This document shows positions 1,111-61,782 of a stretch of 64,000 nucleotides of DNA, piece by piece; position 1 is the first letter of the stretch, and each line of letters opens with the position of its first letter. The translations under genes and the position numbers were made by a program. The notes below the pieces were generated by a model, which saw nothing but the letters and a program-made list of their open reading frames with translations, was not told where the DNA came from and made no database searches. The DNA comes from Octopus vulgaris. Lineage: Eukaryota. The stretch spans positions 2,852,001 to 2,916,000 of the forward strand of contig OX597827.1 of assembly GCA_951406725.2 (NCBI GenBank), in the 5' to 3' direction.

Positions 1111-1523
1111 AAACACAAGCACAAGCACACATAGACTTGTGTGTGTGAGTCAGATTGAATGGCACTGCCCAGATGTCGAAATCATAGTGATATCTGCTTA
1201 GGCTGCTGATGATGGGAATGCACACATTCTATGCTCAATTGTGGATTGCTTATATCTTAGACTCGTTGTCCTGGGTTGTCCTTTATTCTTATAAAATGGA
1301 AAGAGTTTGTCAGGATCGCTTACTTTGGTATTGTTTGGTTTTCTTCATAGGTAACCTAATTAAGCTTGAACGAGGCTTAGATATTGATATCACATTTTGG
1401 GAAGTTCTGTGGCACACACACACACACACACATAGCTTTGGTTCGACCTGGGGCTAAAGCAGAAAACACCTGCCCAAGATGCCACACAGCAGGACTGAAC
1501 CTGGAACCATATATATGTATGTA

Positions 1524-14880: not shown

Positions 14881-15295
14881 AAATCCTACCAATGTCTATG
14901 AAATATGTATCAACCAAAGAATACAATCAATATAATACAATCATATACAATCCCTTACAGATGTCATCTCATACGGATGTTACAAATCATTGCTATTATT
15001 GGGTTTCCTTCATAGCCTTAGGTGCTAGTGTTCCACTTGGGGACTTTCTCATATCTGTCTGACTTTCATCTTTCACTTCTTTCAGCCATTGGACTGCAGC
15101 CATGCTGGGCATCCCCTTGACGAGTTTAGTTGAAAAAATTGGCCCAAGTACTTACTTTTTTTTAAAGTCTGGTACTTATTCTATTGGTCTCTTTTGACAG
15201 ACTTTTAGATTATAGGAACATAACAAACCAACAACAGTTGTAAAGCAGTGGTAGAGGATAAATAGATCGACATATTATATATATATATATATGTA

Positions 15296-15480
15296 GGCCG
15301 GCCAGATTAGAGTAGTCTTGAGTGTAACCAGCCGAAAATGCTAAGACAATCTGGAACTCAATTGAGGATAAGAAGCTCTGAATGACCCATCCCTGTTTTT
15401 CCCTGTACCTTTTTGTATCGTTTAACCGTCCGGGTGTTTTGTTGTCGCATGTGACAATCTTGTTCCATTTTTTTTGTTTT

Positions 15481-15490
<10 letters not shown>
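15296..15490 (+). mobile_element. Penelope-like terminal fragment in (TA)n with a re-ordered hammerhead-like motif
   Basis: Flanked by (TA)n with a T-rich tail; contains GTC, GAAA and tTGAGGA with complementary arms (see findings). Confidence 0.5.
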
Positions 15491-17448: not shown

Positions 17449-18751
17449 CAGGGTGTGATGGGTGAATTGTCACCATTTTTTATTTTTAATTTCGTGCATG
17501 TACAATGTTTGTTTTTGATTTTGTCAGCAACACAGAATACTAGGGTCAGTTGGGTACCGTCTCTGAGAAAAACAGCACCATGATGTAATTCACTCCACCA
17601 GAAATTTGGAAACGACATGCTGTACTGCTTGGCATTCATACCGGAAGCTCCAATACAAACATCCAGAGTGTTTGGGTGTCAATCTGAGTACAGTGCGGAG
17701 GATTCAGAAAGAGTTGGATGAGTCTAATGGTGATTATGATGGTATTACAGCTCGAAAAGCTCACTCTGACCGTTCTGATAAGAAAAGAATTCTTGCATTT
17801 GTTGGTGAGATCCAGGCCATGATTGACAACGATCCCTCCAAGTCAATCAGGTCCATCACCAGGGACATGGGAGTGTCTGAGCTTCTTATTAGGCAGAAGA
17901 GGTGCATGAAGATATTCAGTATTCCTCATACAAGATGAGAAAGGGCCACTTTTTATCACAAGCCATCAAGGACAAGAGGAAAGACCAGACTACGAAGCTT
18001 TTGGACAAACTCAAGCATCTCCTTCAACCGAACATGCTTTGGTTTTTCTCAGACGAGAAAACTTTCTGCCAGGATCAGATGTTGAGCACACCGAACTACC
18101 GTTGGCTTGCCGTTTCCCCAAAACATGTACTGAGAATGATAAAAAGCAAACATCCAGTCAACATCATGGTGTTTGGAGTGAACACTAATGATGGTGACGT
18201 TATGCCTCTAATCATCTTCCTACACGGCTTCACACTCAGCACAGTGACTGACATCAAGTACCTGGAAGAGATGGTGCTGCTCTGGGTCAAGAGGCTAGCC
18301 ACTGGAAAACCCTATGTCTGGCAACAAGACTCTGCACCATGCCACACAAGAAGGAGAACCTAGTCATGGCTGTCAAACAATTTCTGTGACCACATCACCC
18401 CTAACATCTGGCCACCTAACTCCCCAGACTGCCACCCCCTTGATTATTATGTGTGGGGTGCAGTTGAGCGAGAGACCAACAAAACTCCTTGTAACACCAA
18501 AGATGAACTGAAGGCAAGGATTATGGCAGCATTCACCAACTTAAACAAGGAGAACATCCAGAAGAGTTGCAGGAAATTACAAAGTCGTCTGGAGGCCATG
18601 GTTGAAGCCAATGGTGATTTTATTGAATAAATTTACTCATAATTATTTCTGGATATTTTTATGTAATTTTGATAAATATATTTGTTGAAAGGAGATGTCA
18701 GTGTTATTTTTATTTTTGTGTAATTCATATGACAGTTTATTCTCTGCAACT

Positions 18752-41503: not shown

Positions 41504-41609
41504 CATATATATACATAAATATATGAGGAAAAGTTTCAGTTATCATATATATATAATACATACATATATGTACATACCGACATATATATGTATATATACA
41601 TGCATATAT

Positions 41610-41890
41610 GGGTACAGGACATAAAAAAAACGTAGACAAAATGAGAAATGAGAACATAAAAAACAAAAACAGAAAATGAACTTTTTACGGACAACGAAAG
41701 AAACAGAGAAATGATACAGGCAACATAAAGAACATTCCCTTCATCAGTTGTCCCCTGTTTTATCTACTCCGTATTTCGAAGGTAAGGACAAGACACAACT
41801 TTGTTAAAATAGTCCTTCCTGCAAAGCAAATTAAATAAAATTTGGGATTTTTTGCGGAGGGTTAAAGTGGTAACAAAAACAGGACAGTAC
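41610..41890 (-). mobile_element. Penelope-like terminal fragment with a re-ordered hammerhead-like motif
   Basis: TA-rich flanks; minus strand has GTC, GAAA and CTGATGA with complementary arms and a T-rich tail like the 15296 insert. Confidence 0.55.
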
Positions 41891-41999
41891 ATATAAGCAT
41901 GTATTTATATATTATTTATATTATTATATGATCGAAAACCATGCATCCATTTCCAAGTATATATATGCATGTGCACACTTACCAAATTCACTTACAAGA

Positions 42000-54909: not shown

Positions 54910-56754
54910 TACATGTGTGTGTGTGTTATGTGCTTGTTTGTTGGAACAAGGAATCTAAATCACAAGAATGGAAACAGATTTATAAAGCTGTACATTAAAT
55001 CAACAATAAAGATATATACACATACATATATATTTATACACATACATAAATATTTATCTATTTACCCATTAATGTATCTCCCTATATACCCACTCATACA
55101 CACACACACACTCACATTTATATCATCATCATCATCATCATTGATTGAATGTTCACTTTTCTATTCTCGCATGAGTCAGATGAAATTCCATTACTTCTGT
55201 GGCTCAGTGCTCTTTCTGATGCCAACCCTCGTTGGTTTCCAAGTGAGTTAAAATATCCCAAAATCTTACATAGATAAACAGCACACACACGCACACACAC
55301 ACACACATGTTCATTGAGTGCACAGGACTTAAAGTTTCCTTTGATTTTATTCCAGCCAGCTGATGCGATAGCAATGAGAATAATCAGCTGAAGTACTCGG
55401 GCAGTTGCTTAAACAATTCCAAAACTTATCACCATGCTTTTCCAGAATCCAATGATCTGTTTTATTTTTGCTACTTTCGATGACTGGAATAAGGATTTGA
55501 ACTCAGTATGTCCATATCCAAAACAGATCTTTAATCTTTTACTTATTTCAGTCATTTTACTGCAGCCATGCTTGGGCACAGCCTTGAAGAGTTTAATCCA
55601 GTACCAAACAAATTTACTCCAGTACTTTTTCATTTTTAAAGCCTGGGGCTTATTGTATCAGTCTCTCTTGCCGAACTGCTACGTTATGGATATGTAAACA
55701 AACACACACTGATTGTCAAGCTGTGGTAGATACATATGCATGTGCACACATATATACATACAAACATGCACACACATATCTTTTATCTTTTACTTCTTGG
55801 AAACAATACGTTGCTCTGAAGTTGAGAGCAATGCCCATGTGTTAGAAAGATCATATGATCTCCTCCATCTTTGCCAATGGGAGTGCTACATGTCTCTCCT
55901 TTTTTGCAACACATGTATATATACATACACACACTCACATGGAGAATGAGTTTCTTTCAGTTTTGTTCTACCAAATCTACTCACAAAGCCTTGATTGGAC
56001 CAAGGCTGTTACAGAATACACTTGCCCAAAGTGTCATGAGATGGGACTGCTGACCAAAGCCTCGTGAGTAGATTTGGTAGATGGAAACTGTAAGAAGACC
56101 TTTATATGTATGTATGCTAATATATATATAAACAGGATCTCCTGAAATTATGGCAACTGAAGTTTCGCTGTGAAGCAAGCTTCTTCACAACTCCAGCCGC
56201 CACAATTCATCTTATTCAGCATGCTAACATTCAGCATACTAATCTACCATACTGGACTAGCACTTTATTTACCAAGCCCTAAAGGATGAAAGTCACAAGG
56301 GAGTAGATGAAAGTACATCATTGATAAGGCTGCAGGCTTTGACCAAAGTACTATGACAAACCAATTGATTGGTTGATCAATCAATGGATCACATCTTAAG
56401 TTAACAATTAAATTGATAATAAGAAATGAGATCTGACTGGTGCAAATCTTTTAATTCTGTGCATCTGTTTCAAGACACACTTTTCTATTTAAACAGATGT
56501 TTGCTTCCCAATCACATGGTCTAAGGTTCAGTCCCACTGTATGACAACTTAGATAGGTGTTTTCTAATTTTTGATATAGCCTCAGGCTGACGAAAGCAAT
56601 TTGGGTGGATTTAAGTTGACAGAAACCAAAAGAAGCCTATTGTGTGCATGTGTGAAGGTATACTATATAGTATTTATGTGTGTGTGTGTGTGGTTGCCCA
56701 TGCTAGCATGGAAAACGGACGCTAAACGATGATGATGATGATGATATATATATA

Positions 56755-60146: not shown

Positions 60147-61575
60147 TTAGGTTGTGATGTATCAATCTCTATAGTAACCTGCTCAATGAGAATTTCATTG
60201 GATGCTTGTTCATTTCTTATAACCTTTAGTAGTTTACTGATTGTGGGATGAGTTATGTAAAGTCTTTTTTCAAAATCCTGAAACCATCCCCTCTCTCTCT
60301 CTCTTTTGGAGAGGCACAAGCACCTACACGCACATGTACACACACGGCAGTAACTTCCGCCTGCCGAATTCAATCACAAAGCTTTGGTCGGCTCGGGGCT
60401 ATAGCAGAAGACACCTACCCAAAGTGCCACACAGTGGGACTGAACCCGAAACCATGTAGCTAGGAAGCAAGCTCCCTAACCACACAGCCATGCCCGCGCC
60501 CTTTGAGAGAATTGTTTGCTCTCAGCAAATTATCATGAACTTGAGTGTGGACAGACCACAAATCAACATCAAAAATTGGTTTCCTTCAATGCCCTCTCTG
60601 GACTATTCCTAACTGCGTACTTTCAAAGTAAACAAGATAATCACTTAATAACTAATCAGTTTCATCTAAGGAATTCACCAATTCATAAAATAATTGATGC
60701 CCATCTGTGGGTGGGACAAAGGCAAATGTTTGTAATTGCTCGATGAAAAGGGCATTACTTGTTTCAACATACCAGTGTTGCAGTCCACACGACGGGATAT
60801 TGCACCATAAACATTGCCCAGAATGAAAGAAACAACCCAGTATTGATATATTAGGAAAGTTCTTCTTAAAGCTGTTTATTGTTGCTTATTTGAAGTCGAT
60901 TGTTATTGAATCCAGATCCTGAACACTTTTGCTTTTCAAAAACATAAAAAATTTCATTATAGATTTCCTCTTTGTTACTTGTAATACAATACACCAATGG
61001 CAAGGTTTTGTTCCCTGAAACAGTAACATGTATAGTATACAGCTGTTTGCTTAGGGGAACAGAGTCAAATGTGCCATTACCTAACTATGTTTGTTTGCCA
61101 GATAGTAATTTCAAATTTTTTACTGTTGTTAAAATAGAAACAGCAATGGTTTCACATAGCTGAAAATTTTCTCCATGTGTTGTCATATCCAAGTCTTCGC
61201 TATCATCAATCTTTCTTGCTCACTTTACCATTCTCCCGAACATTTCTCTTCTAAGCAGAGAACCAGCAATGTTGAGAGGCAACTCCTCCATGACATTATT
61301 AATTATAGCCCCAACATCACCTCTTCTGTCTGTTTGGCTGTAGTCCTCATTTTAGCCAAAGCTTTTAGAACATTAATATGAACACCATCTGGAGGATGTG
61401 ATTCATTTAAAACATTTCCATCTTCAGTACCACTTTTAGTTCTAATTCTAGCATTGCACACTTTTCGTTTTTCACATCTCCAGTAAGTGGTTTCCGTAAC
61501 TTTTTTATCGACAATGTATGTATATCCATTAAGAAGGAGCTTTCTACCATAACCTGCTGTTTTAGTGAATTCCAT
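60147..61575 (-). pseudogene. Mutator-like (MULE) transposase with N-terminal FLYWCH zinc finger, disrupted
   Basis: KLLLNGYTY...YWRCEKRKVCNARI...H; GNGTFDSVP..QLYTIH...LPLVYC; GCFFHSGQCLW; RANNSL, then GW...HPTISKLL..IRNEQ; split by a SINE A fragment at about 60292-60500. Confidence 0.88.
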
Positions 61576-61634
61576 GGTCAAACTGTGGGGATAAAATGAT
61601 TTACTTTTAAAAAAAAGTATGTAATTAAATATTG

Positions 61635-61782
61635 AACTATTTTTAATCTCATTAAATCTTAAGTTCCAAATTGATGAATCGGTCACTATAATATGTGGGT
61701 AGGAATTTTTTGTTTATCCTTTTTATCTATTAGAGAAGATGTTTTTGAGATTAACTATTTTTAATCTCATTAAATCTTAAGT
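61635..61782. repeat. 30-bp direct repeat upstream of the MULE ORF
   Basis: aactatttttaatctcattaaatcttaagt at 61635 and 61753. Confidence 0.9.

Follow-up and report, generated by a model that had tools for sequence, protein, structure and literature searches.

Natural hammerhead ribozymes have been dissected into three blocks, S, G and C, and the non-circular block orders SGC and CSG both occur in nature and cleave in vitro, with rates of 0.004-0.19 per min (Table 1 of Eckert et al. 2023, PMC10085705). In the part of that paper available to us, type SGC (HRIMA-1 and its variants) comes from metatranscriptomes rather than from the genomes of known organisms, type CSG is represented by two metagenomic examples, and block C, which consists of the 3' strand of stem I, the CUGAnGA motif and the 5' strand of stem II, is assumed to be uninterruptible. 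According to the accessible text of PMC3705267, one extra nucleotide at A9/G10.1 is tolerated in the natural and active plus hammerhead of CChMVd; C or G at this place is harmful. The Naiad retroelements were reported to lack a canonical hammerhead: In the available portion of Craig et al. (2021, PMC8557442), 10 consensi labelled 'HHR_core' and 8 labelled 'HHR_half_core' fit no descriptor. Moreover, the non-LTR retrozymes have been proposed to be non-autonomous derivatives of Penelope elements (bioRxiv 10.64898/2026.07.22.740005, available sections). A hammerhead that is opened at A9/G10.1, here called the open form, was not found in the literature searched, which was mainly open-access, and it is absent from the accessible portions of PMC3088659, PMC13725137, PMC10162972 and bioRxiv 10.64898/2026.07.22.740005.

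Our work on a 64,000-nucleotide stretch of Octopus vulgaris DNA (the window) supports the idea that such a form exists. Judging from sequence comparison, the locus at 15296-15487 is a decayed copy of a conserved six-helix fold that sits at Naiad-type 3' ends, and we consider it probable that the intact fold is a self-cleaving hammerhead, with a core that is opened between A9 and G10.1 and predicted to be shut by two helices.

Copies of the motif in the window

The sequence at 15296..15487 (plus strand), which lies between TA runs, is identified by repeat matches as a 5'-truncated copy of repeat family A, retaining the 3' end of what is a Penelope-like, non-coding unit. A TA run at about 15272-15295 replaces everything upstream, and copy 1, as we call it, starts at the first base of stem II. 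From there, the plus strand carries the 5' strand of stem II (15296..15301), with 15296 corresponding to G10.1 and separated from the CUGAnGA block; the 5' strand of helix P (15302..15308), a brace between stems I and II like the interaction helix of types SGC and CSG; the 5' strand of stem III with the GUC that ends at 15317 (15311..15317), so that the cut is predicted between 15317 and 15318; the 5' strand of stem I (15318..15323); a segment with the 3' strand of stem II, the GAAA (15334-15337) and the 3' strand of stem III (15328..15342); the 3' strand of helix P (15348..15354); and the 3' strand of stem I followed by the CUGAnGA block (15356..15368). The 3' strand of a further helix, Y, follows at 15370..15376 (plus strand) and is orphaned, its partner and a hairpin, X, having gone with the 5' truncation. 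When the positions were rechecked, the hammerhead segments lay exactly where the initial annotation had placed them.

Stem I (15318-15323/15356-15361) and helix P (15302-15308/15348-15354) pair completely, with 6/6 and 7/7 pairs, and five of six pairs form in stem II (15296-15301/15328-15333; C.A at 15299/15330) as well as in stem III (15311-15316/15337-15342; G.A at 15315/15338). Both core mutations that had been claimed for this copy are real: The core at 15362-15368 has a U in place of C3 (15362), and position 15338 deviates from family A, which breaks pair 15.2-16.2. As a result, copy 1 lacks the complete hammerhead core of CUGAnGA, GAAA and NUH with A15.1-U16.1. The competing 5-bp hairpin that had been noted is also present (15315-15319/15343-15347), and the one two-sided change in stem I reflects CpG decay. 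Copy 1 fails the strict motif descriptor, and its fold is no better than those of shuffled sequences (z = +0.79). Copy 1, which has lost hairpin X and half of helix Y, is probably a decayed fragment that is likely inactive as a ribozyme. The truncation is also the reason why X and Y were invisible in the initial annotation.

A complete six-helix motif is present on the minus strand at 41737..41861, within a repeat match (41609-41889) that belongs to family B. In this copy, the 5' strand of Y is found at 41861-41858, X starts at 41857, G10.1 is at 41818, the predicted cut follows 41792, the core occupies 41747-41741 and the 3' strand of Y 41740-41737. The site 41741-41818 passes the strict descriptor. 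Thus, the layout that had been reported there as a repetition of copy 1 does exist, but on the minus strand and in a different repeat family. A third copy with the same layout, at 1153..1215 on the plus strand, is decayed and 5'-truncated and belongs to family C, the 3' end of a Naiad.

An Rfam search of the window yielded no hammerhead among the 150 of 281 matches listed. The window also contains a U6atac minor spliceosomal RNA gene or a copy of it (55801-55912, minus strand; 69 bits as compared to a gathering score of 33) and, between 18000 and 28000, a strong excess of C over G that is due to long microsatellite tracts. The frames at 17567-18360 (plus strand) and 61306-61713 (minus strand) presumably represent degraded sequences similar to a Tc1/mariner transposase and to a FLYWCH-type transposon protein, respectively.

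Layout and conservation of the six-helix fold

Comparison of the copies gives the strand order Y5'-X5'-X3'-II5'-P5'-III5'/NUH-I5'-II3'-GAAA-III3'-P3'-I3'-CUGAnGA-Y3'. The initial annotation had recognized that the partner strand of stem II lies 5' rather than after CUGAnGA and that there is an extra helix P, and both features are supported by the family copies and by the exchange of letters across unrelated elements. Two helices come in addition, and they pair across the A9/G10.1 gap: Between the end of hairpin X and G10.1 there are 0-1 nt, and helix Y arises from pairing of the strand immediately 5' of X with bases 0-2 nt past A9. The core of the open form is open between A9 and G10.1 because the 5' strand of stem II lies upstream and does not follow CUGAnGA. 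A single fourth helix between the flanks, which was considered before, fits family A alone and gave way to the combination of X and Y; joining of A9 to G10.1 by back-splicing was discarded, as there are no splice signals at the gap.

As had been proposed, genomic copies were collected, and the intact relatives restore the hammerhead core. Among selected copies, the core together with stems I to III as well as helix P is kept in 7/30 copies of family A, 7/30 of family B and 11/30 of family C. Natural copies that are intact and have both X and Y include L260:3773-3885 (predicted cut after 3829), L294:2658-2780 (after 2720), L034:1519-1654 (after 1593) and L258:2037-2147. The suggested descriptor search, which required neither X nor Y, found two sites in 464 kb (the window plus unselected stretches of the genome) and none in each of 20 shuffles. 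Since the descriptor hits exceed those in shuffled sequence, it is the family rather than copy 1 alone that takes the layout out of the range of chance. The recommended covariation analysis was carried out on family A: In a set of plus-strand copies made up of the window and 11 of 29 loci (without L004, L026, L029 and L030), 89.7% of the cells are paired and nine pairs show two-sided changes as compared to 2.2 after shuffling, but these values are inflated by the non-homologous flank of the window copy and by CpG decay, and we therefore do not use them as support.

The other comparison is that between families. Twelve representatives with a median identity of 0.49 differ in the letters of all six helices, and a 5' strand pairs with the 3' strand of another family in only 35-63% (pairing within the own family being 100% by construction). 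In spite of this divergence to about 50% identity, the catalytic positions are kept, i.e. CUGAnGA, GAAA, the U-H of the cleavage site with H never being G, and G10.1-C11.1, which is a G-C pair in 12/12 representatives. The complete core of CUGAnGA, GAAA and NUH with A15.1-U16.1 is found in the intact copies and in the 12 representatives, flanked by stems I, II and III that are backed by letter exchange. Stem II is formed via the upstream strand: This strand provides 4-6 bp, and the bases following A9 would give just 0-3 bp in 12/12. For X and Y, at most 9 of 200 shuffles reach the observed score in 11 of 14 representatives. The signal is weak in L265 (20/200), and no X or Y was found in L318; the family A representative L020 turned out to be mis-registered (104/200) and was afterwards replaced by L028 (0/200). 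Y, X and P are part of the lowest-energy folds of four metagenome copies, which have z-scores between -3.0 and -3.9; the family B copy L034 has a z-score of -0.75 and a different best fold. Taken together, a conserved six-helix RNA structure is well supported by these comparisons.

Repeat families and Naiad retroelements

A search of the 2.8-Gb genome gave 1912 candidates for family A (query 15296-15487) and 5547 for family B (query 41625-41900), and the 40 candidates scored for each have identities of 81-85% and 87-90%, respectively. The units of both families are non-coding, measure about 760-810 nt and finish in TA runs; their 5' end is truncated at variable points, and they occur mostly as monomers and partial tandems: A preceding unit terminates with its 3' end directly upstream in 18 of 30 mid-unit loci. 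Penelope-like elements are built in this way. In 30 loci, family A is not joined to any ORF, and none lies near the A or B units; family A is thus devoid of the Naiad ORF with its N-terminal GIY-YIG, CxC, DKA and RT. It is likely that A and B move as non-autonomous passengers with the help of a Penelope-like enzyme, for which a Naiad is the best candidate; since no ORF accompanies the units, we can only infer the mobilizing enzyme. Near the start of the units (L013, L019 and L035), a splice-donor-like word and a pyrimidine tract are present together with a shared word that resembles an E-box, which suggests an intron and an internal promoter. In a diverged B subfamily (L147:5773-5909 and L077), stems I and P are spelled with other letters and the junction is intact.

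Two candidate partners of A and B were rejected. The 3' flanks of young Penelope-like families with a C-terminal endonuclease are unlike A and B and lack such a core (30 + 30 loci), and the Naiad RT remnants are followed only by family C (14 of 30 loci with C) and not by A or B. The young families with a C-terminal GIY-YIG include L167:744-3086 with a frame of 781 aa and L182-L210 with frames of up to about 1000 aa; in the 3' flank examined, neither contains a CUGAnGA core. One of these families (L184, L198) has a GC-rich block in a long CA-rich tail about 550 nt past the ORF.

The connection to the Naiads comes from family C. In the available part of the PMC8557442 supplement, the tail of Naiad_Obim can be parsed by eye into the same strand order with different letters, and a 16-nt word from this tail has 603 exact matches in the genome as compared to none for a control. 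These matches define family C, which by eye is near-identical to the published octopus Naiad consensi as far as these were available. The first descriptor is passed by 12 of 30 family C loci, and in 17 of 30 the motif lies 0.4-1.5 kb behind the end of an RT on the same strand. The best relatives of this RT, P0002 and P0003, have an N-terminal GIY-YIG, and by these sequence relationships family C forms the tail end of an element with a Naiad-type RT. A ribozyme assigned to these Naiad tails was not found in the literature searched, again mainly open-access.

Both the open form and type CSG recur among the published Naiads. Among the 54 consensi in the accessible PMC8557442 supplement, the open form was recognized by eye in ten (ctenophore, hydrozoan, three coral, two cubozoan placed by file order, one arthropod and two octopus consensi) and type CSG in six nematode consensi; the remainder, including several from arthropods, bivalves and squid, was not parsed or not viewed. 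Several arthropod consensi in the portion seen share a run of C followed by CUGAnGA, with partners that were not parsed, and these are possibly another variant. For a wider view, 80 metagenome Naiad loci were fetched with an alignment of 39 Naiad proteins. The strict descriptor found nine open forms and one CSG on the sense strand, none on the antisense strand and 0-1 in each of ten shuffles. L289, one of the nine, is a chance hit inside an ORF and was dropped, as were L297, L277, L320 and L081; a relaxed descriptor added L265 and L313 (open form) as well as L242 and L243 (CSG). The final tally for the 80 loci is ten open forms, on the sense strand and with unrelated stem letters, and three CSG hammerheads. 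The other 67 loci show neither form; in 61 of the 80 there is no CUGAnGA in the 3' flank searched, in part as the contigs are short and in part as one clade has no such core. No hammerhead of type I or III was found in the 80 loci, the 40 loci tried gave no match to Rfam families, and no relatives of Naiads were found in viral contigs. In a quick RT tree with weak deep support, the three CSG loci cluster (0.954), the open form is spread over two deep clades and both forms are missing from one large clade. The CSG hammerheads (L241:3781-3870, and the 3' flanks of L242 and L243) are thus seen in one Naiad clade and in the nematode consensi of the supplement as available, and in some of them A9 and G10.1 are separated by a single additional base.

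Proposed mechanism and relation to known ribozymes

How could a hammerhead work if its core is interrupted? In the predicted fold, Y, X, P and III would form a nested frame that is crossed by stems I and II as two pseudoknots. The strand that runs continuously from Y5' into X5' would splint the tail after A9 to the strand that enters G10.1, which is itself supplied by the upstream strand, and the splint may thus create a four-way junction at the core, atop the A9.G12 pair. The role of a cut after NUH would be the processing of tandem or read-through transcripts, as has been hypothesized for other Penelope hammerheads in the accessible text of PMC8557442. The two cleavage products would remain paired via Y, II, P and III, and cutting may therefore be slow or reversible. 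In the genome, 118 of 151 copies read through the predicted cut site, and five start at it as compared to 1.6 expected (p = 0.024, a post hoc comparison), figures that are compatible with cutting as well as with its absence. It is tempting to speculate that the split-core hammerhead with its splinted junction is the ribozyme hidden in much of the Naiad clade, ranging from comb jellies through corals to cephalopods, that type CSG represents its sister form, and that the split-core form is a reversible switch, cutting and rejoining the RNA so as to shape the template or to yield circular monomers. The clamping of the products by four helices is the reason for the reversible reading, and we favor this wider proposal slightly over its negation.

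An active ribozyme is not the only conceivable explanation for a conserved fold. The fold might be real but serve mainly as a hammerhead-derived binding signal for the reverse transcriptase of the element, with little or no cutting. Retention of the fold in A and B, which are non-coding, is what one would expect of a recognition signal, and an opened core may slow catalysis; the frequent read-through of the site points in the same direction, but it is expected either way, because copying requires a template whose last ribozyme has not cut. A mere binding signal hardly requires that every catalytic position be kept in elements of such low identity, and we regard this explanation as unlikely, even if it is the most serious of the rivals. 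Cutting might also take place only when two copies, be it in tandem units or in two RNAs, swap strands. Dimeric minimal hammerheads of Penelope elements cleave by such a strand exchange between copies, and both the partial tandems in 18 of 30 loci and the near-palindromic stem II arms of family A would suit it. Yet all six helices close inside one unit, stem II has 4-6 bp and is neither absent nor limited to the 1-2 bp at which dimers become necessary, and swapping strands would not join A9 to G10.1, which makes an obligate dimer quite improbable. Of the 'pseudoknotted or dimeric' topology put forward initially, only the pseudoknots are needed. Finally, that the pairing is fortuitous within a repeat, or reflects DNA hairpins without a role as RNA, could be suspected from the unremarkable fold of copy 1 on its own and from those two-sided changes in family A that are CpG decay; this is largely excluded, because the fold recurs strand-specifically and in other letters at Naiad loci that are unrelated, with almost no hits in shuffled sequence.

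If the self-cleaving hammerhead with an opened core is the correct reading, it would contradict the assumption, made in the available part of PMC10085705, that the CUGAnGA block and stem II are inseparable, and its wiring would fall outside the six types of that work. Non-circularly permuted hammerheads, in the open form and as CSG, would then be present in animal genomes at thousands of copies, the statement in the accessible text of PMC8557442 that Naiads spread without hammerheads would be overturned, and the role of ribozymes in Penelope retrotransposition would become testable in the Naiad clade. Moreover, a core closed by separate helices would represent a natural design for switchable ribozymes.

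Like the Naiads in the available PMC8557442 text, families A and B have the motif in a 3' position, TA-repeat targets, partial tandems and 5' truncation, but unlike Naiads they are non-coding. In this respect they resemble the non-LTR retrozymes, which, in the sections of bioRxiv 10.64898/2026.07.22.740005 at hand, form non-coding tandem units with one hammerhead each; the retrozyme units carry type I hammerheads, whereas the A and B units do not.

As for the ribozymes, the pseudoknot (pistol-like) hammerhead (Zhan et al. 2024, PMC11300833, available part) is another natural form with extra helices and a pseudoknot, but there A9 and G10.1 are contiguous and the pseudoknot is formed by the stem II loop with an upstream stem-loop, which is not the case here. 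The open form has neither the circular block order nor the three-way junction without pseudoknot of types I, II and III, in agreement with the initial view that it fits none of them; as a topology it is less new than was claimed, since its block order has been published as type SGC (PMC10085705, accessible portion, as in what follows). With this type it shares the order site-GAAA-CUGAnGA, the two pseudoknots, an interaction or brace helix on the other sides of stems I and II, and a short linker between stems I and II (1-5 nt in 10 of 12 representatives, typically 3 in type SGC). In contrast to type SGC, the 5' strand of stem II lies upstream and not after CUGAnGA, and the extra helices X and Y enter the core. 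With type CSG, it has the circle of strands and helix P in common; CSG itself, i.e. the order C-S-G with a contiguous core, is present in the Naiad loci L241-L243 and not in families A, B and C. Type CSG is opened after stem III and has no X or Y, and in this the open form differs. From these sequences and the published types we infer that SGC, CSG and the open form are three openings of one circle of strands, the open form being the one opened inside the core, and it is this opening at A9/G10.1 that, set against the published types as available, is the new element of the layout.
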